DNA from: an uncultured Nitrososphaerota archaeon
Lineage (GTDB): Archaea; Thermoproteota; Nitrososphaeria; Nitrososphaerales; Gagatemarchaeaceae
Assembly (NCBI GenBank): GCA_963703285.1
Contig: OY969807.1
Span: forward strand, 352,001-416,000
Length of the DNA stretch: 64,000 nucleotides
Reading direction: 5' to 3'
Part shown: positions 9,800 to 39,722 of the stretch, piece by piece
Layout of the letters: every line of letters begins with the position of its first letter
Position numbering within the stretch: position 1 is the stretch's first letter
Program-made: the position numbers and the translations under genes
The notes under the pieces: model-generated
The model's database searches: none
Told to the model about the DNA's origin: nothing
The model's input: only the letters and a program-made list of their open reading frames with translations

Positions 9800-9874
9800 C
9801 TAACTTCCCGTCCTCCGCTTTCTCTTCTGGTAGGTCCTTATTGCGCGCAAGAGGTCTATCTTGCGGAAAGAGGG
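9800..9874 (-). repeat. Orphan duplicate of the uppS 3' end (PSFRKIDLLRAIRTYQKRKRRTGS*)
   Basis: Encodes 19 consecutive residues identical to the uppS C-terminus at 10023-10091, with different synonymous codons. Confidence 0.9.
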
Positions 9875-9889
9875 TCGAGTAGAGATTCA

Positions 9890-10022
9890 ATGAACATGAG
9901 TGTTCATAAGACCTAGGAAAGGAAATCCCTTGAGATAGAGGCCTTGGCCAAGCGAGGAGTAAAGGACTTTTCTCAGTGGGAACGCGCTTGGATTGGCGAA
10001 CTTGTCGCTGTTCAGGCGTTGA
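9890..10022 (+). pseudogene. Decayed ORF remnant between the two uppS tails
   Basis: ATG 9890, in-frame TAG 9914-9916, then ERKSLEIEALAKRGVKDFSQWERAWIGELVAVQAL; lower GC than host genes. Confidence 0.4.
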
Positions 10023-10814
10023 TCATCTACCTAGTCTTCGTTTCCGCTTTTGGTAGGTACGTATTGCGCGTAACAAATCAATTTTTCTAAACGCCGGCCA
10101 GTAGACGTCCATGAAGATTAGCTCGCTGTAGGCTCCCTGCCAGAGGAGGAACCCGCTCATCCTCTCCTCCCCCGAGGTGCGTATTATCAGGTCGGGCTCG
10201 GGGTTGGGCAGGTGGGATGTGTAGAGCCTACCGGCTATGGTGTCCTCTCCGATCCTCGAGGGGTCGAGCGTCCCATTCTTCACGTCCTCTGCTATCGACC
10301 TGACGACGTCCGTAATCTCGGCCCTCCCGCCGTAGGCTATGGCTATGTTCAGGAAGTGCCCGTCGTAGGCTGCGGTCCTCTCCTCCACCTCTCTCAGGAT
10401 GTCGAGGAGCGACTTGGGCAGGACGTCGAACTTGCCGATCCCCTTGACCCTCACCCTGTACTTGTAGATTCGTTCGTCCGTAAGCAGCTTCTGGAGCCTC
10501 TCCTCGATCAGCCTGAAGAGCTCCTGCACCTCCTCCGAGGTCCTCTGCAGGTTCTCGGTCGAGAGCACGTAGAGCGTTATCGATTTGATGCCGATCTCGT
10601 GGCACCAGTCGAGGAGCTTCTCGACGACGTCGGCCCCGTAGGCGTGCCCCGCGTCCACGGAGTACCTGCGGTCCTGCGCCCACCTCCTGTTGCCGTCGAG
10701 GATTATCCCGACGTGCCCCGGAATCGGGCCGTCCTCGACCTGCCAGCTCAGCCTGTTCTCGTAGAACCTGTACGCCCCGGTCGCCCTAAGCAGCCCGTCA
10801 AGCACTCGTGTCAC
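10023..10814 (-). CDS. uppS: Polyprenyl diphosphate synthase (cis-prenyltransferase)
   Basis: HVGIILDGNRRWA, LSTENLQR, IAYGGRAEI, IIRTSGEERMSGFLLWQ.AYSE. Confidence 0.96.
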   Translation of the reverse strand: MTRVLDGLLRATGAYRFYENRLSWQVEDGPIPGHVGIILDGNRRWAQDRRYSVDAGHAYGADVVEKLLDWCHEIGIKSITLYVLSTENLQRTSEEVQELFRLIEERLQKLLTDERIYKYRVRVKGIGKFDVLPKSLLDILREVEERTAAYDGHFLNIAIAYGGRAEITDVVRSIAEDVKNGTLDPSRIGEDTIAGRLYTSHLPNPEPDLIIRTSGEERMSGFLLWQGAYSELIFMDVYWPAFRKIDLLRAIRTYQKRKRRLGR

Positions 10815-16585: not shown

Positions 16586-18538
16586 TCACTTCTTCATCTC
16601 CCGTGCGAAGCTGACGAAGTACTCCATCGACGAGGGGTTCTCGAGGGAGTCCGGGTTGTAGACCTTGGCGGGGTCGGCCCCGAGGAGGATTCTCCGCACG
16701 GGAACCTCGACCTTCTTCCCGTTGAGCGTCCTCGGGACCTCCTTCACGGCGAAGATGTCGTCGGGGACCATCCTAGGCGAGAGCTCCGCCCTTATCCTCT
16801 GCCTTATCTCCGCCCTGAGGGGCTCGTCGAGCGCGGCGTCCTCTCGCGGGACCACGAAGAGGGGCATGTACGAGCGGCCGCCCAGGAACTCCATGTCGAC
16901 GACGAGGCTGTCGGCGACGGCCGGAATCGCTTCGACGACTCGGTAGAGCTCGCTCGTCCCCATCCGTATCCCCATCCTCTTTATCGTGGCGTCCGACCTC
17001 CCGAAGATGACGCAGGTGCCGTCCTCGTTGATCTGGATCCAGTCGCCGTGCCTCCACTTCCCCGGGAAGAAGGTGAAGTAGCTCTCGCGGTACCTCTCGC
17101 CGTCACTGTCCCCCCAGAGGTAGAGGGGCATGGAGGGCATCGGCTCCTCTATGACGAGCTCCCCCATCTGTCCGACGACCGTCCGCCCGATCTCGTCGTA
17201 GGCGGCTACGTCGGCACCCAGGCATCTGCACTGGATCTCCCCCGACCTGACGGGGAGCACGGGGCACCCCCCCAGGAAGGCCGTCACAAGGTCAGTCCCG
17301 CCGCTTATCGACGCCAGCCAGACGCTCTCTTTCACGTGGGAGTAGACCCACTCGAACCCGTCGGCGGTGAGCGCCGAGCCGGTCGAGCCGAAGCCCTTCA
17401 GCTGCCTCAGCGAGTGCGTGGAGATCGGGTCGACGCCGGTCTTCATCTGGGCTCCCACGAACGCGGCGCTCGCCCCAAGGAATGTCATCTCCGCCTCGTC
17501 GGCGAGGTCCCAGAGTGCGTCCGCTGTGGGAAAGAAGGGGTCTCCCTCGTAGAGTACTATCGTGGAGCCGAGCAGAAGGGACGAGACGAGGTAGTTCCAC
17601 ATCATCCACCCCGTGGAGGTGTACCAGAACATCTCGTCGTCCGGCCCCAGGTCGTTGTGAAGGGCGAGCGCCTTGAGGTGCTCCAACAGGATCCCTCCGT
17701 GACCGTGCACCATGGCCTTGGGGAGGCCGGTCGTCCCAGAGGAGTAGACTATCCACAGCGGGTGTTCGAAGGGGACCTGCTCGAAACGCATCTTCGATGC
17801 TGACCTGGTCAGGTCGTCCCAGTTGTGCACGCGGTCGATACCCCCGGTGTCCCGCCCGACCATCACCGTGTGCCCGATGGTCGGGATCGACTCCCTGACC
17901 TGCCCGACGACCTCGGCCTTCTGGATCCACTTCCCCCTGTAGCTGTAGCCGTAGGAACCGATGAGGACCTTCGGCTCTATCTGCTTGAATCGGTCCACCG
18001 CGCTGAGGACACCGAAGTCGGGCGCGCAGCTGGACCAGACCGCACCGATCGACGAGCAAGCCAGGAGGGCGATCACCGCCTCGGGGACGTTCGGGAGGTA
18101 CGCGGCCACCCTGTCACCCTTCTCCACCCCCATGTCCCTGAGCGACTCGGCGAAGGCCGCGGTCTTCCTCTCGACCTCCGACCAGGAGACGCTGCGTAGA
18201 CCCTCCGTCTCGGTCTTGGCGAGGATCGCGGTCTTCGCCGGATCCCTCGCAGCGAAGAAGTGCTCCGCATAGTTGAGCGCGCCGCCGGGGAACCACTTCG
18301 CCCCAGGCATCGTCCTGCTCTCGAGGGGGGTCGTGTACGGCGAGCTCCACTTCACACCGAAGAACTTCGAGAGCGACTCCCAGAAGCTCTCCAGGTTGTC
18401 GACGGACCACCTCCAAAGCTCTCCATAGCTACCCGTCCTGACTCCGCATTCGCGCTCCAGCCAGCGCGAGAACACCGTGATGTTGGCTTTGTCGATGGTC
18501 GCCTGCGAGGGCTTCCAGAGAGTCTTCGGCTCAGCCAT
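16586..18538 (-). CDS. Acetoacetate-CoA ligase
   Basis: WFPGGALNYAEH, YSSGTTGLPK, WMMWN, SGGTD, WRHGDW, GRSDATI; ATG at 18538. Confidence 0.92.
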   Translation of the reverse strand: MAEPKTLWKPSQATIDKANITVFSRWLERECGVRTGSYGELWRWSVDNLESFWESLSKFFGVKWSSPYTTPLESRTMPGAKWFPGGALNYAEHFFAARDPAKTAILAKTETEGLRSVSWSEVERKTAAFAESLRDMGVEKGDRVAAYLPNVPEAVIALLACSSIGAVWSSCAPDFGVLSAVDRFKQIEPKVLIGSYGYSYRGKWIQKAEVVGQVRESIPTIGHTVMVGRDTGGIDRVHNWDDLTRSASKMRFEQVPFEHPLWIVYSSGTTGLPKAMVHGHGGILLEHLKALALHNDLGPDDEMFWYTSTGWMMWNYLVSSLLLGSTIVLYEGDPFFPTADALWDLADEAEMTFLGASAAFVGAQMKTGVDPISTHSLRQLKGFGSTGSALTADGFEWVYSHVKESVWLASISGGTDLVTAFLGGCPVLPVRSGEIQCRCLGADVAAYDEIGRTVVGQMGELVIEEPMPSMPLYLWGDSDGERYRESYFTFFPGKWRHGDWIQINEDGTCVIFGRSDATIKRMGIRMGTSELYRVVEAIPAVADSLVVDMEFLGGRSYMPLFVVPREDAALDEPLRAEIRQRIRAELSPRMVPDDIFAVKEVPRTLNGKKVEVPVRRILLGADPAKVYNPDSLENPSSMEYFVSFAREMKK

Positions 18539-18630
18539 GTGATGAAGAGTAGTAGGAGGGGGGCGGTATAAGCTCGCTGGAGTGAGCCGCCCAGGGGTGG
18601 GGCTGATATGCTCGGACTGACTCTCGACGC

Positions 18631-19569
18631 GTGAAGAAGAATCCCGCGCCGACACTCGAGCGAATCAAATCCTACGAGATGCTCCGGAGGCTGGTCGACG
18701 AAGGGGTCGATGACGGGCCGGCGGCGATTGTTATCAGGCTTCGAGAGGCAGGATTGCAGGTTCCTTCCAGGGGTACAGTCCAACGCTGGGTCCACAAGAG
18801 GAGTTCTCCCTCGACGAGCATGAGAACGTTCGAGCCAGTGCCTTCCAATGAATTGTCGTTCTTCGTTGCAGCATGGATTGGTGACGGCTGGGCGGACGAG
18901 GCCGACGGAGGGAAGAGGATGCGGCTGAAGGTGAGGTCAAGATCGTTTGCGGAGGAGTTCGCTCGCTGCGCAAGCGTAATCCTCTCAAAGTCGAAGCCTT
19001 ATTGCGTCTGGACGACGGAGGACGAAGGTGGCAAGTGGTACAACGTCAAAGTAACGAGCCTCAGATTGTACGAATTCGTCACCCGGCCTCTCACAAGTTT
19101 GAAGAGTTTCATATCTGAAAATCCAGAGGGATTTCTACGGGGCTTCTTCACGGCCGAAGGTTGTCCCTCAATCAACATCTCCAAGCTCCCTTCGGAATCC
19201 GGCAAGAAACTGCGCCTTGACATAGCTGCCGTTGTCTCGAATTGCGACATTGAACTTCTCGAGTACTCTAGGGACTTGCTTAGCAAACTCGGATACCATC
19301 CAGGGAAAGTTCGCCTGAATCATCCTAAAGGGAAGAAGACCAATCTGTCAGTAGCCTCGAAGGACAATTACCTGGTTACTATGGGAAGATTTGACGAGCT
19401 CTCTGCCTTCGCCGATGAAGTGGGCTTTGCGGATTCGGAGAAGAACGCGAAACTGCACGAGGCATTGGAACTTGTGGGCGAGGCGGGGTCATTTCGTGCC
19501 GCCGAGCGCTGGCTGGAACTTTACGTGAAGGTCGGCGGCAAGTGGACCCGAAAGGACTCACCTACGTAA
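18631..19569 (+). CDS. Free-standing two-motif LAGLIDADG homing endonuclease
   Basis: ELSFFVAAWIGDG and EGFLRGFFTAEG motifs, N-terminal HTH-like segment, lower GC; antisense within a minus-strand cluster. Confidence 0.85.
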   Translation: MKKNPAPTLERIKSYEMLRRLVDEGVDDGPAAIVIRLREAGLQVPSRGTVQRWVHKRSSPSTSMRTFEPVPSNELSFFVAAWIGDGWADEADGGKRMRLKVRSRSFAEEFARCASVILSKSKPYCVWTTEDEGGKWYNVKVTSLRLYEFVTRPLTSLKSFISENPEGFLRGFFTAEGCPSINISKLPSESGKKLRLDIAAVVSNCDIELLEYSRDLLSKLGYHPGKVRLNHPKGKKTNLSVASKDNYLVTMGRFDELSAFADEVGFADSEKNAKLHEALELVGEAGSFRAAERWLELYVKVGGKWTRKDSPT

Positions 19570-20721
19570 GGTTATGACTGTGCCACATTGGAGTAAGTCC
19601 CCCCAGGCCTGCGCGAGGCCCCTCTCCGCCTTCTTCTTGATCTGCCTCTTCCCCGCCTCGCCCTTCAGCTGCCAGTAGACCTCGCAGACCTTCATCATCC
19701 CGGCCGCGGCGATGGGATTCCCCACGCCCAGCAGCCCGCCGGACGGGTTGATCGGGAACTCGCCTCCTCTCTGGGTCACGCCCTCCTTGGTCAGCCTGGG
19801 CGCCTCCCCCTTCTTCGCCAGCAGCAGGCCCTCCATGTGGTGAAGCTCCTTGTAGTCGAAGGGGTCGTAGACCTCGGCGAAGTCCAGGCTCTTCATCGGG
19901 TCCTCTATCTTCGCCATCTTGTAGGCCATCCTCGCGGCGCTCTCGACGTACGACGGGTAGTACAGGTCCCTGTTGGTCCAGTACTGCGTGTCGACGTTCC
20001 AGCCCACGCCGTCGATCCAGACCGGGTCCTTGGTGTACCTGCGGGCCACCTCCTCCGAGGCTAGGATGACCGCTGCCGCGCCGTCCGAGGGGGGCGAGAC
20101 GTCGTACCGCTTCACGGGCGAGACTATCCTCTCGCTGTTCATCACGTCCTCGACCGTTATCTTCGCGGCGAGCTGCGCGCACGGGTGGTCGAGCGCGTTC
20201 ATCTTGTTCTTGACTGCGACCAGTGCGATCTCCTCCTCCGTCACGTGGTGGACGTGCATGTAGCGCCTCATCTCGAGCGCGAAGATCCAGAGGAGTGTCA
20301 CCCCCAGGGGCCTCTCCGTGGTGTGGTCGAAGATGGACCAGAAGGCGGACTGGGGGTGCGGGTGCAGCGGCGACATCTTCTCCTCGGCGACGGCCAGGCA
20401 GGTGTCGAAGAGCCCCGAAGCGACGTGCCACCATGCGCCGATGGGGGTGAAGACGCCCGTTCCTCCCCCGACATAGACCCTGCTCGTCGGCCTCCCAATC
20501 CCCCCAGCGCCCTCGAGCAGGTACTCGCCCTTCATGTGGACGCCGTCGAATGCGTCTGGCGCGCTCCCCATCACCACGGATTCGACGTCCTTCATAGTCA
20601 TCCCGGCCGAGTCGAGCGCCATCCTCGACGCCTCGAACGAGAGCTCCCTACCCGTCTCCAGCAGCCGCCGCCTGAAGAGGGTCATCCCAGCCCCGATGAC
20701 CGCGACCCTTCTCTTGATCAT
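19558..20721 (-). CDS. SCP-x-type thiolase-domain protein
   Basis: AEEKMS, SDGAAAVILA, EVYDPF, INPSGGLLGVGNP; ATG at 20721. Confidence 0.9.
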   Translation of the reverse strand: MIKRRVAVIGAGMTLFRRRLLETGRELSFEASRMALDSAGMTMKDVESVVMGSAPDAFDGVHMKGEYLLEGAGGIGRPTSRVYVGGGTGVFTPIGAWWHVASGLFDTCLAVAEEKMSPLHPHPQSAFWSIFDHTTERPLGVTLLWIFALEMRRYMHVHHVTEEEIALVAVKNKMNALDHPCAQLAAKITVEDVMNSERIVSPVKRYDVSPPSDGAAAVILASEEVARRYTKDPVWIDGVGWNVDTQYWTNRDLYYPSYVESAARMAYKMAKIEDPMKSLDFAEVYDPFDYKELHHMEGLLLAKKGEAPRLTKEGVTQRGGEFPINPSGGLLGVGNPIAAAGMMKVCEVYWQLKGEAGKRQIKKKAERGLAQAWGDLLQCGTVITLRR

Positions 20722-21857
20722 ACCCTCGCCCCCGACAGTATCGCGACGCCCCCGGTGGCGGTCGGGACCCCCCGCCAGGACTGGACGAGGGCCCTCCGCG
20801 CCCCATCCACCTGCATCGGGCCGGCCTCCCCGCGCAGCTGGAGCACGCACTCCAGCAGCCGGTGCAGCGCCGACGCCTCTAGGAGGTTGCCCACCCCCAG
20901 GGAGCCACCGCACGGGTTGATGACGGGCCCGTCCCCCGAGAGGATCCTCTCCATCTCTGCGCGGCTCTTGGCGAGGGAGAGCAGGTGCTGGAGTAGCTTG
21001 AACGAGTAGGCGTCGTCGAGCTCGAGGACGTCGAAGGCTCCCAGGTCGCGCTTGAGCCCCGCTCGAGCGAGCGCCCTGCCGTAGGACTCGCTGGCGTAGC
21101 CGGCCACCGACGGGTCGCCCCCGTCGTACCACGGGAGGGACGAGCTCCAGGCGACCCCGTCTACGAAGACTGCATGCCTCCTGTTCTTCCTTATCCAGCG
21201 CTCCGAGGCGAGGACGAGCACGACCCCGGCGTCGGCGAACGGGGCCCTGTCGACCCTCCGAAGAGGAGGCGAGAGGTACCCCGACCCATCCAGGTCGGAC
21301 TTGCTCAGCCTGGCCCCGTAGCTCGCCCGCGGGTTGTCCAAGGCGCGGCCCTTCACGCCGATCAGCAGCCCGTCAAGAACGTCCCTCCGGCTGCCCGAGG
21401 ACCTCATGAAAGCCCCCATCTCCAGGGCGGCTAGCGAGTCCGTGCTGATGCCGAGAGGCCGGATGAGCGTCGGTTCCTGGGCGAGCCTCTCCACGGCCTC
21501 CTTGTCGATGACGTCCGCCGCCTTGCTGTGAGCTTCGAGCGCGACGACCTCGGCCACGCCCGAGAGTATCTGCATGACCGCGTTCCCGAGCCCGGTTATC
21601 GAGTCACCCGCGATGGTGCACAGGGGTCTGCCTGCCCCCCCTATCTGGTCGGGGACCATCTCGTCGGCGATGGACCAGCCCTCCCAGAGGTCCTCGGTGC
21701 AGCAGACGAATGAGTCGACGTCTCTCCTCGGCTCGACCGAGGCGTCGTCGTATGCCCTCGCGGCGGCCTCGTACATCATCTCCCTCGTGGAGAGGTCGGC
21801 TACGACGGGTCTGAAACCCTCCGACCCCACGCCCACGATACCGACTCGGTTCGGCAT
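20718..21857 (-). CDS. Thiolase-domain protein (paired paralogue)
   Basis: RVGIVGVG, ELDDAYS, INPCGGSLGVG, QLRGEAG; ATG at 21857. Confidence 0.85.
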   Translation of the reverse strand: MPNRVGIVGVGSEGFRPVVADLSTREMMYEAAARAYDDASVEPRRDVDSFVCCTEDLWEGWSIADEMVPDQIGGAGRPLCTIAGDSITGLGNAVMQILSGVAEVVALEAHSKAADVIDKEAVERLAQEPTLIRPLGISTDSLAALEMGAFMRSSGSRRDVLDGLLIGVKGRALDNPRASYGARLSKSDLDGSGYLSPPLRRVDRAPFADAGVVLVLASERWIRKNRRHAVFVDGVAWSSSLPWYDGGDPSVAGYASESYGRALARAGLKRDLGAFDVLELDDAYSFKLLQHLLSLAKSRAEMERILSGDGPVINPCGGSLGVGNLLEASALHRLLECVLQLRGEAGPMQVDGARRALVQSWRGVPTATGGVAILSGARV

Positions 21858-21949: not shown

Positions 21950-22939
21950 ATGACCGGAAGGCTCGCACTCGGTTTCAATCCGGTACTGCCCGTGAAGGAC
22001 GCGGTCGCGGTGGGGAAGAAGGCGGAATCTCTGAGCTACGAATCGGTCTGGTTCCACGAGAGCCTGTTCCAGAGGGACGTCTTCTCCTACCTCTCGGCCG
22101 TCCTCCTATCCACGTCCCGCATCCGTGTGGGTTCGGGGGCGATCAACACGTTCACGAGGCACCCGCTGACCACCGCCGCCACCTTTGCGTCGCTCAGCGA
22201 GCTCTCGGGGGGGCGCGCGGTGATGGGTGTCGGGTTGGGGAGCTTCCCGACGATACCGAACATCGGTTACAAGATATTCCCGGTGGCCGAGACGAGGCCC
22301 CTCCAGAGGATTCGGGAGTACGTTGCCATCTGCAGGTCCTTCTGGGCCGGCGAGAAGCTGGACTATCATGGCACCTTCTTCACGGCCGAGAAGCTCCAGT
22401 CGGACATCAAGCTCGCGTTCAAGGTCCCGGTGTACATAGCCTCGCTCTCGGAGAGGACGCAGAGGTACGCGGGGGCCGAGGCCGACGGTGCGATACTCTC
22501 GCCCTCCATCGCGACGACGGAGACCACGGCCACGATGGTGGCGCACGTCAGGGAGGGGGAGAAGACCTCCGGACGGACGGTCGACAAGGCCTCGTATCTT
22601 CTCACCTCGGTGGACGAGGACAGGGAGAGGGCCCGGGCCGCCGTCAGGGGGTTCTACTTCTTCAAGTATCAGCTGGGCGAGGTGATAAAGCCCGAGTCGT
22701 TGAGCAGGTACGGGGTTTCACTCGACGAGGTCGAGAGGTTCAGGGCTGCCTGGAGGTCCCGGGACCCCGGGGCGGAGAGCCTCGTGCCCGAGGGGGCCAT
22801 CGACGCGATGAGCGTCTGCGGAACCCCCCAGGACGCGCGGTCGAAGATTGAGGGCTTTCGGAGGGCCGGCGTGGACCTGCCAATCCTGATGCCCATTGGA
22901 AACGTTAATTATGCGATAGAATCACTCGCACCAAGCTAA
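21950..22939 (+). CDS. LLM-class flavin/F420-dependent oxidoreductase
   Basis: TSRIRVGSGAIN..TRHP...A.TFASLSELSGGR..MGVGLG. Confidence 0.88.
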   Translation: MTGRLALGFNPVLPVKDAVAVGKKAESLSYESVWFHESLFQRDVFSYLSAVLLSTSRIRVGSGAINTFTRHPLTTAATFASLSELSGGRAVMGVGLGSFPTIPNIGYKIFPVAETRPLQRIREYVAICRSFWAGEKLDYHGTFFTAEKLQSDIKLAFKVPVYIASLSERTQRYAGAEADGAILSPSIATTETTATMVAHVREGEKTSGRTVDKASYLLTSVDEDRERARAAVRGFYFFKYQLGEVIKPESLSRYGVSLDEVERFRAAWRSRDPGAESLVPEGAIDAMSVCGTPQDARSKIEGFRRAGVDLPILMPIGNVNYAIESLAPS

Positions 22940-38513: not shown

Positions 38514-39722
38514 TTGCAAAGAAACCTACACGTGGAACCAATTCCAGCCTGCGTCTCGGACGCGGAGGTCGAGATAGTCGAGCGCAAGGGGATAGGGCAC
38601 CCCGACAGCATAATCGACGGGTCGTGCGAAGCCGTCTCCATAGCGCTCTCAAAGTACTACCTCGAGAACTTCGGTGTCATCTTCCACCACAACGTGGACA
38701 AAGGACTGCTGGTGGGCGGCAAGTCGGACGCTCACTTCGGAGGGGGACGGGTCATCGACCCCATCTACATCCTCGTTGCGGGGCGCGCCACCGACGTGGT
38801 GCCGTTCAAGGGGAGGGATCAGAAGATTCCGGTCGAAGAGATCTCGCGGGAGGCGATAGCCGACTACATCAGGGCGACGATGCGTTACCTCGACCCCGTG
38901 AAGCACGTCCGTCTCGAGACGATGATCAGACAGGGGTCCCCCGACCTCATCTCGGTCTTCCTGCGGAAGAAGGAGATGCCCGTGGCGAACGACACCTCGG
39001 TCGGCGTTGGTTTCGCCCCGCTCTCTCCCACGGAGAGGGCCGTCTTCGACATCGAGCAGCTCCTCAACTCCCACAAGTTCAAGAGGAAGTTTCCCGAGGT
39101 CGGCGAAGACGTCAAGGTCATGGGGCTGAGGGTGAAGGACAAGCTGACGGTCACGGTGGCGGCGGCCATGGTGAGCGGGAAGATCCCGGACGCGAGCCAC
39201 TACGAGAGCGTCATCGGAGATGTGAAGAGCCACGTCGAGGACCTCCTCGCAAAGGGGCCGCTCGATTCGAACCTCAGGCTCAACAGCGGGGACGACCCGA
39301 AGAGGGGAAGTTACTATCTCACGGTCACGGGGACGTCGGCCGAGCAGGGTGACGACGGGAACACCGGGCGGGGCAACAGGGTCAACGGCCTGATATCACC
39401 CATGCGCCAGTACTCGATGGAGGCGACCGCCGGGAAGAACCCGGTCAATCACACGGGAAAGCTCTTCAACGCCGTAGCGCTACTCGCGGCTGAGAGGATA
39501 ACCAGAGAGGTCAAGGGCGTGAGGGAGGCGTACGTGAGGATTCTCAGCAGGATCGGAAACCCGATAGACCAGCCCCTCATCGCAAGCGCTGCAGTGGTCC
39601 TCTCCGCCGGCACTTCCTTCGCCCGGGTGAAGCCCGAGGTCGAGTCGGTGCTCGACGAGTCCCTCGCAGGGATACGGAGCGTCACGGACCTGATTCTCGA
39701 GTCGAAGATCGTGCTGTTCTGA
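38514..39722 (+). CDS. mat: Archaeal S-adenosylmethionine synthetase
   Basis: EIVERKGIGHPD, HHNVDK, ANDTS, GEDVKVMG, GRGNR, AGKNPV.H.GK. Confidence 0.96.
   Translation: MQRNLHVEPIPACVSDAEVEIVERKGIGHPDSIIDGSCEAVSIALSKYYLENFGVIFHHNVDKGLLVGGKSDAHFGGGRVIDPIYILVAGRATDVVPFKGRDQKIPVEEISREAIADYIRATMRYLDPVKHVRLETMIRQGSPDLISVFLRKKEMPVANDTSVGVGFAPLSPTERAVFDIEQLLNSHKFKRKFPEVGEDVKVMGLRVKDKLTVTVAAAMVSGKIPDASHYESVIGDVKSHVEDLLAKGPLDSNLRLNSGDDPKRGSYYLTVTGTSAEQGDDGNTGRGNRVNGLISPMRQYSMEATAGKNPVNHTGKLFNAVALLAAERITREVKGVREAYVRILSRIGNPIDQPLIASAAVVLSAGTSFARVKPEVESVLDESLAGIRSVTDLILESKIVLF

Follow-up and report, generated by a model that had tools for sequence, protein, structure and literature searches.

A LAGLIDADG nuclease gene antisense to an A/T-rich thiolase gene end: a probable homing cassette of the Nitrososphaerales

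In this work we describe a locus at which a predicted homing endonuclease gene is wedged between two metabolic genes of an archaeal chromosome. The window, by which we mean the whole 64,000-nucleotide stretch that was analysed (contig OY969807.1, positions 352,001 to 416,000), comes from an uncultured archaeon of the Nitrososphaerales whose genome is a single contig of 2.25 Mb. On its minus strand a thiolase-like gene (20718-21857; nearest NCBIfam entry PRK06066, 356 bits, under the 516-bit cut-off) is followed by a thiolase gene (19558-20721, PRK06065, 387 aa from a likely start at 20721; 674 bits vs an NCBIfam cut-off of 455), an acetoacetate-CoA ligase gene (16586-18538, PRK03584, 650 aa from an ATG at 18538; NCBIfam 927 bits) and two small open reading frames (ORFs) with cysteine-pair (CxxC) motifs. 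Between the thiolase stop and the ligase start, antisense on the plus strand, lies a LAGLIDADG nuclease gene called at 18631-19569 (GTG start, 312 aa). The thiolase is its host gene on the 3′ side, and the two overlap by 12 nt (19558-19569), the final 12 nt of the thiolase being antisense to the end of the nuclease ORF. The nuclease and the CoA ligase start divergently on either side of a 92-nt spacer (18539-18630), and the whole insert sets ligase and thiolase 1 kb apart. Homologues of the window genes are found in metagenome-assembled genomes labelled Nitrososphaerales or Thaumarchaeota, mainly from soil.

The nuclease gene has a GC content of 0.54 and a G/C fraction at third codon positions (GC3) of 0.645, in a window with a GC content of 0.618. 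It lies outside any intron or intein, as a separate ORF on the strand opposite to its neighbours. A scan of positions 18000-20200 returned no intron model of Rfam, and no ribozyme context; the sole row was a snoRNA at chance level (E 0.63). Four soil DNA runs gave fragmentary contigs in which no nuclease-less joint was seen, which at such depth proves nothing, and one of these contigs covers 19247-19737 with zero differences from the window.

By its sequence and predicted structure, 18631-19569 encodes an intact, free-standing, monomeric two-motif LAGLIDADG homing endonuclease that is predicted to cleave DNA. The protein matches Pfam LAGLIDADG_3 (E 2.9e-9, 37.5 bits vs a cut-off of 22.5). Motif 1 is LSFFVAAWIGDGW (...AAWIGDGW) with D85, and motif 2 is FLRGFFTAEG with E176; both acidic residues are invariant in all of 29 homologues, which are 40-65% identical and align over their full length, with unconserved C-termini. 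The AlphaFold2 model has a mean predicted local distance difference test score (pLDDT) of 89.4, and its top Foldseek matches are I-DmoI (E 1.4e-8, template modelling score on target 0.68-0.71), I-Tsp061I and the fungal I-OnuI. I-DmoI is also the best sequence match among solved structures (E 1e-3). In the model the N-terminal ~70 aa form three helices ahead of both motifs, and a Pfam scan of the N-terminal 77 aa gave sub-threshold rows only. Neither NCBIfam nor PHROGs has a family for the nuclease.

Four more full-length paralogues of the nuclease are encoded in the same genome, all outside the window (loci L002-L005; G000:C1 220708-221457 (+), 344480-345217 (-), 1311483-1311920 (+) and 1869436-1869855 (+)). 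They are 277-319 aa long, 24-31% identical and have GC3 values of 0.61-0.77. Each is free-standing and head to head with its upstream neighbour, the arrangement seen at the ligase. Many further paralogues occur in relatives, several with in-frame stops.

The thiolase end is unusual in its spelling. The final 12 sense codons read TTA CTC CAA TGT GGC ACA GTC ATA ACC TTA CGT AGG, of which 7 end in A or T, and the 18 codons before them all end in G or C. For comparison, GC3 is 0.912 in the whole thiolase gene and 0.93 in the body without its last 24 codons. The protein that this tail encodes, DLLQCGTVITLRR, is the normal conserved thiolase end in alleles with and without the nuclease alike, and the NCBIfam profile aligns to position 392 of 393 there; only the synonymous sites are therefore unusual, with nothing new at the protein level. 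The 12-codon tail shares 9-45% of its third positions with relatives (7 alleles, five of them at 9-27%), against mostly 50-90% elsewhere in the gene. Set beside the nearest empty allele, by which we mean one that lacks the nuclease, the source genome (G000) differs at 12 of the last 30 nt and at 7 of 30 in the preceding block. Taken alone this tail exceeds chance only moderately, and the weight comes from the comparison of alleles that is described below. The last 12 codons with the stop (19558-19596, minus strand) are what we propose to be a cassette-borne or co-converted replacement tail.

At most 5 of the last 12 codons end in G or C in two further long ORFs of the window with a high GC3: one ends at 22900-22939 (ORF 21950-22939, plus strand) and one at 39682 (minus strand). 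A genome-wide search for downstream tail copies found none for either.

These observations bear out what a sequence-only reading of the window had first claimed, namely an antisense two-motif LAGLIDADG gene that overlaps the thiolase by 12 nt, an abrupt wobble switch in the last 12 thiolase codons and no sign of intron context. That reading went on to propose an intact nuclease that would cut a conserved motif near the gene end (AQAWGD) and would spread together with an immune, recoded tail.

A family alignment yielded 39 loci, 25 on metagenome contigs and 14 on genome contigs. At every one of the 39 the thiolase end is convergent on the 3′ side of the nuclease, or the ligase start divergent on its 5′ side, or both, wherever the contig reaches. 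The nuclease gene was antisense and convergent to the thiolase at every locus examined, and its stop varies in position between 17 nt short of the thiolase and 39 nt into it. We sampled 401 genomes of the order with a nuclease profile that also catches paralogues at other sites; it matched 39 of 96 genomes of the window's family vs 0 of 304 in other families. A thiolase orthologue is present in 44 of 97 family genomes. Among these 44, an intact nuclease adjoins the thiolase in 10, a broken copy or remnant in 6, and neither copy nor remnant in 28. The damage takes several forms: an in-frame stop (G186), two stops (G236), frameshifts (G021 and G276), fragments (G012) and, in G241 (L098), the C-terminal third of the nuclease only (E 1e-15) in a 553-nt spacer. 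After removal of duplicates there are 66 distinct alleles, 28 intact, 7 broken or remnant and 31 empty, so that pseudogenes or remnants make up 7 of the 35 occupied alleles. In most empty alleles the ligase starts ~0-23 nt past the thiolase stop on the same strand; the two genes are therefore a tightly coupled pair that the insert splits. The nuclease behaves as a site-specific mobile element among these relatives. In some nuclease-free genomes of few contigs (L024 (G008), L028 (G022), L029 (G014) and L016 (G009)) the thiolase reads as frameshifted, which may come from long-read indel errors and not from true pseudogenes.

The alleles also allow the tail to be compared with the state of the nuclease. 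Six of the 66 were set aside as too short or from low-GC genomes. In the rest, GC3 falls from the thiolase body through codons -24 to -13 to the last 12 codons as 0.86, 0.69 and 0.55 in intact-nuclease alleles (n = 27), as 0.84, 0.74 and 0.64 in broken ones (n = 7) and as 0.84, 0.76 and 0.75 in empty ones (n = 26). The nuclease-free alleles hence do not share the A/T-rich tail (last-12 GC3 0.75 vs 0.55 in intact carriers). The position-wise GC3 profile, the carrier means and GC3 correlation, the synonymous distances with their Mantel tests, the independent pairs, the state changes and the topology tests given here and below rest on a slightly earlier sorting of the alleles, in which L070 counted as intact and L055 as broken. 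By position, carriers and empty alleles diverge from ~3 codons ahead of the W of AQAWGD onwards and do not converge again before the stop, a tract of ~17 codons that is longer than the nuclease overlap in most alleles. In carriers the last 17 thiolase codons have a mean GC3 of 0.57, beside 0.63 in the nuclease and 0.86 in the thiolase body. Among 23 carriers the nuclease and the tail differ about equally in their synonymous codons (0.57 and 0.58), and the body differs less (0.41). In a partial Mantel test of tail distance on nuclease distance, given the body, r is 0.33, a value reached by 2 of 5000 permutations. The A/T-rich tail is thus linked to the nuclease, and its composition and synonymous divergence match the nuclease and not the thiolase body, while the reading frame and protein of the thiolase are conserved through it as an in-frame C-terminus. 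The effect is one-sided. The ligase head has no excess divergence (0.37 vs 0.38) and no GC3 drop (0.83 vs 0.82) in carriers.

If a gene end has been replaced, the native end may survive nearby as an orphan. We aligned 37 spacers to thiolase tails and only those of L015, L055 and L053 stood out. At L015 and L055, which represent the most divergent nuclease lineage, a native end ...TGAGGCGCTAG (11-12 nt plus the stop) lies beside the ligase start, and 0 of 100 shuffles were as good; the thiolase itself ends there in another spelling, e.g. CTG CGC CGA TAG. L053 keeps ACGATGAGGCGC, a 12/12 match that 2 of 100 shuffles equalled. At these loci at least, the cassette thus appears to have supplied a gene end and pushed the native end aside. 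In the source genome, CTTCATCAC-ATG at the ligase start was tried as an orphan, for its resemblance to GTC ATC ACG ATG, and rejected as not significant.

A second gene of the window has an arrangement of this kind without a nuclease. The last 24 codons of uppS (10023-10814, minus strand) have a GC3 of 0.33 vs 0.89 in the body, and 160 nt downstream (region 9800-10814) there is a GC-rich orphan copy of the last 20 residues, 18 of 20 identical. The nucleotide alignment of this orphan scores 36 vs a shuffle maximum of 26. The same layout occurs in L102 (G009) and L103 (G014), with the orphan at ~+490 nt, and a decayed copy is present in L106 (G002); uppS alleles without the orphan copy have tail GC3 values of 0.50-0.96. 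When 1595 ORFs were searched for a downstream copy of their last 20 residues, only uppS paired an A/T-rich tail with an orphan, the other 6 matches being rejected as paralogues or shadow frames with GC-rich tails. A hidden Markov model (HMM) of the thiolase-site nuclease family found no nuclease remnant downstream of uppS at 30 uppS loci. This lineage thus has two sites at which an A/T-rich tail, apparently a replacement, is accompanied by a GC-rich native orphan.

The spacer holds what are putatively the promoters of both flanking genes. Ahead of the ligase ATG, at a distance of 27-34 nt, the minus strand of the window has a TATA-like CTTATACC (18565-18572); ahead of the nuclease GTG, at 22-27 nt, the plus strand has TGATAT (18604-18609). 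A related motif, TTATAACC, is found beside the nuclease start in 12 of 25 nuclease-bearing spacers. In short (~63-nt) spacers the near-palindromic box is also ~30-35 nt from the ligase start, so that one box might serve both directions. The ~0-23 nt between thiolase stop and ligase start in most empty alleles leave no room for a promoter of the ligase's own. Two empty alleles, L077 (G180) and L014 (G018), retain the TATA-like motif as TTATAACC / ATATAACC in longer spacers of 68-150 nt, and in a third, L028 (G022), the last 9 nt of the thiolase are tandemly duplicated before the ligase start; these are probably scars of nuclease loss. The family HMM found no nuclease remnant in the 150-nt spacers of the empty L010 and L014.

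We also record that the near-palindromic TATA-like box has the form GCTTATAACCACC; in 12 of 25 carriers it stands ~20-30 nt away from the start of the nuclease. Besides those at 18565-18572 and 18604-18609, TATA-like boxes were noted in the spacers of L020, L040, L043-L045, L047, L052, L053, L066 and L070. The empty allele L024 (G008) has ATGAG between stop and start.

The history of the nuclease is not that of its host gene. On a tree of 50 thiolase bodies, from which the last 25 codons were excluded, presence and absence of the nuclease cannot be explained by fewer than 12 state changes, and well-supported branches enforce 7 of these. The branches of the nuclease tree are long, and the tree conflicts with that of the thiolase. 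The approximately unbiased (AU) test rejects, for the nuclease, the host-supported grouping of L020, L052 and L039 (p 9e-5) and the host-supported split of the five carriers of the window's genus vs 13 others (p 3e-4). Synonymous divergence (dS) of the nuclease is 2-4 times that of the thiolase in several pairs (2.29 vs 0.60 for G000/G002) and equal in close pairs. Different old nuclease lineages occupy closely related hosts. The ratio of nonsynonymous to synonymous divergence (dN/dS) of the nuclease is 0.14-0.24 in 9 of 12 pairs, the others being saturated; since it is well below 1 across deep pairs, selection on the nuclease protein persisted.

Taking these results together, we think it probable that the locus is a live, site-specific homing cassette of the Nitrososphaerales. 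The cassette would have three parts: a replacement thiolase 3′ end of ~12-17 codons that keeps the protein and has A/T-rich wobble sites, the antisense gene for a free-standing monomeric LAGLIDADG endonuclease, and a short promoter-bearing spacer that would drive both the nuclease and the ligase that is now separated from the thiolase. The enzyme would cut nuclease-free alleles in or beside the thiolase 3′ end, and a nuclease-bearing allele would then serve as the repair template, from which the cassette is copied, starting at the break and up to and including the nuclease gene. The thiolase tail would always be co-copied because it is located between the break and the nuclease gene. That the tract is one-sided and plateau-like agrees better with a break on the side of the thiolase than with one in the spacer. 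The TATA-like boxes would permit expression of the ligase once the gene pair is split. After fixation the nuclease would decay by stop, frameshift or deletion and then be lost, leaving scars. Within this proposal we infer that the nuclease is active, where it cuts, how DNA passes from cell to cell and that the promoters function.

Several points weigh against this reading, and some of them are better accommodated by others. The support consists of sequence comparisons and a predicted structure. The metagenome loci were selected by presence of the nuclease and are therefore uninformative on its frequency. The trees had been inspected before the clade groups for the AU tests were picked, and the relatedness of alleles is ignored in the Mann-Whitney p of 1e-5 for the tail effect. 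Of 7 phylogenetically independent pairs, on average 4.5 agree in the direction of the tail drop, 0 oppose it and 2.5 are ties, which gives a sign-test p of ~0.06. Gene ends drop mildly throughout the genome, to a GC3 of 0.80 vs 0.89 for bodies, and 33 of 799 long ORFs (4.1%) are as A/T-rich as the thiolase, with at most 5 G/C-ending codons in the last 12; this set was defined by a body GC3 of at least 0.85 and includes some non-coding shadow frames. Empty thiolase alleles drop too, from 0.84 in the body to 0.75 in the last 12 codons, and pairs of empty alleles also differ more towards the 3′ end. Tail distance also follows the thiolase body given the nuclease (partial Mantel r 0.30, 0 of 5000 permutations), so the history of the tail is mixed. 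The general drop at gene ends, the drop and 3′ divergence of empty alleles and the link of the tail to the thiolase body would suit a reading in which the nuclease were a homing element whose insert splits the target and so protects the carrier, and the A/T-rich tail arose in place, by antisense overlap or abutment, at a transcript end or under relaxed codon selection. The nuclease stop reaches up to 39 nt into the thiolase, so some tail codons are dual-coding. We consider an origin in place unlikely, because the ~17-codon tract exceeds the overlap in most alleles and the nuclease C-termini that the overlap encodes are unconserved, because the tail equals the nuclease in composition and synonymous divergence, and because the ligase side, which is equally near the insert, is unaffected. 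The native orphans at L015, L055, L053 and uppS, moreover, speak for replacement tails being brought in at such sites.

Other points bear on the mobility of the nuclease itself. Its GC3 correlates with that of the host (rho 0.67), which points to long residence, and a search for a nuclease much younger than its host gene found only the near-identical pair L040/L041; no recent transfer was caught. Both would suit a domesticated LAGLIDADG DNA-binding protein, e.g. a regulator of acyl-CoA genes, that is inherited vertically and repeatedly lost. So would the purifying selection (dN/dS 0.14-0.24), the extra N-terminal helical region and the fixed place beside the ligase promoter region, and host-adopted LAGLIDADG proteins such as WhiA exist, as described in parts of PMC3384342. 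Such a protein is difficult to reconcile with two catalytic acids that are invariant in the 29 homologues, with pseudogenes or remnants in 7 of 35 occupied alleles, with 28 of 44 thiolase genomes that have no adjoining copy or remnant, with a tree that conflicts with that of the host gene and with an insert that breaks a tightly coupled pair; we regard domestication as very improbable. The least probable account in our view is that the nuclease is an intact-looking but inactive relic of one old invasion, followed by decay and loss only, with the tail as a fossil of that event. The many broken copies and the deep divergence among copies (40-65% identity, saturated dS) are in keeping with a relic, but a dN/dS well below 1 across deep pairs means that selection persisted, the clades rejected by the AU test misfit a single invasion, and the host-gene tree still requires its 12 or more state changes.

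On the homing-cassette reading, then, the proposal made from the sequence alone was largely right in kind: there is a mobile nuclease and it is linked to a recoded tail. Its picture of an intact, free-standing, spreading element agrees with the shared site at 39 of 39 loci, the 28 intact, 7 broken and 31 empty alleles and the conflict between trees. The survey of homologues that it suggested turned up convergence with a gene end at all loci that the contigs reach and a GC3 drop in the tails of carriers, and the point at which the groups part lies near AQAWGD, where it had put the switch. One outcome that it had named as refuting, nuclease-free alleles with an equally A/T-rich tail, did not come about. 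Its claim of a recoded tail holds in that the tail goes with the nuclease, and is too strong in that part of the drop is general, as the empty alleles and the gene ends of the genome make clear. It had also reported that no orphan tail is left. This is true of the source genome, where the best score between the nuclease-ligase spacer and thiolase tails, 21, was reached by 5 of 100 shuffles and is not significant, a result that counts against the cassette; it does not extend to the relatives, given the short pieces in L015, L055 and L053.

Does the recoding itself protect the carrier? A drop in GC3 would result if the tail hitch-hiked with an element of lower GC, and also if it were recoded to depart from a GC3-rich target, and is therefore not discriminating. 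Homing enzymes often tolerate wobble changes. Protection of the carrier from cleavage by tail recoding is a possibility to which we give somewhat less than even chances, and the insert alone may protect by splitting the target site. A still broader claim, which we put forward as doubtful, is that archaeal chromosomes host a class of free-standing homing cassettes that carry a recoded gene end as immunity and a promoter for the gene that is cut off, with the thiolase site as a live member, the uppS site as a burnt-out one and the four paralogues as further members. If this were true, neither an intron nor an intein would be needed for cassettes to home into the ends of metabolic or essential genes.

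The locus is of use in several ways. Public data span the whole life cycle of the element, with intact, nonsense, frameshift, deletion-remnant, scar and empty alleles, and whether synonymous recoding of a gene end acts as immunity is therefore a testable question. The nuclease is a natural archaeal LAGLIDADG enzyme with many diverged variants for one site, which makes it useful for studies of how specificity evolves. A further implication is that uncultured Nitrososphaerales of soils exchange DNA recurrently.

The usual view is that homing endonucleases can enter conserved genes harmlessly only by means of an intron or an intein. The exceptions are the intronless homing of phages and the fungal mitochondrial ORFs that carry a replacement C-terminus, and the thiolase locus appears to represent the replacement-C-terminus solution in an archaeal chromosome and a metabolic gene pair. 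In intronless homing, free-standing endonucleases of T4-like phages (SegB, SegF, SegG and MobE) and the cyanophage enzyme F-CphI are encoded between genes and cut a nuclease-free genome near their own locus, flanking markers are co-converted, and sequence differences at the site protect the carrier. The thiolase locus shares with these a free-standing nuclease gene between genes. It differs in having a LAGLIDADG enzyme in a cellular chromosome, where the phage enzymes are of the GIY-YIG, HNH or EndoVII type and meet their targets in phage co-infection; spread of the cassette would need exchange of DNA between archaeal cells. The two-motif, single-chain fold is that of the archaeal I-DmoI and I-Tsp061I, the best structural matches. 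Those enzymes are encoded in introns of rRNA genes, whereas the thiolase-site nuclease has no intron, is ~16% identical to them and has an extra N-terminal region of ~70 aa.

The closest parallel is found in fungal mitochondria. In the portions of two papers that we draw on (PMC3630166, PMC6279837), mobile endonuclease ORFs (mORFs) follow atp6, atp9, cox2, nad3 and cob and replace the C-terminus of the gene, e.g. atp6 in Allomyces macrogynus, atp6, atp9, cox2 and nad3 in Glomus, and cob and atp6 in Endoconidiophora. The new C-terminus is foreign, with divergent nucleotides and a nearly identical protein, and the native C-terminus is left downstream. As at those loci, a LAGLIDADG ORF (in fungi also GIY-YIG) directly follows a conserved gene whose end appears to be a foreign copy with a near-identical protein, the native C-terminus apparently can survive downstream as an orphan in some relatives, and the spread, here as a proposal, is by endonuclease-induced repair. 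The sequence-only reading had called intronless homing little described for metabolic genes of archaeal chromosomes, and this close fungal precedent of the layout (PMC3630166) is to be set beside it. Searches of the open-access literature, judged from titles and abstracts and from parts of PMC6125680 and PMC3384342, turned up no paper on free-standing homing endonucleases at gene ends of archaeal chromosomes.

The differences from the fungal mORFs, as those sources portray them, are nevertheless considerable. The mORFs lie on the same strand as the host gene and often in phase with it, whereas the archaeal nuclease is antisense and free-standing. The part that is replaced is very short, at 4-17 codons, and the orphan is mostly erased and not significant in the source genome. 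A coupled gene pair is split by the insert, which apparently provides the downstream gene with a promoter. What thus appears to be new here is the combination of an archaeal chromosome and a metabolic gene pair with an antisense nuclease, a very short replaced gene end and an apparently donated promoter.

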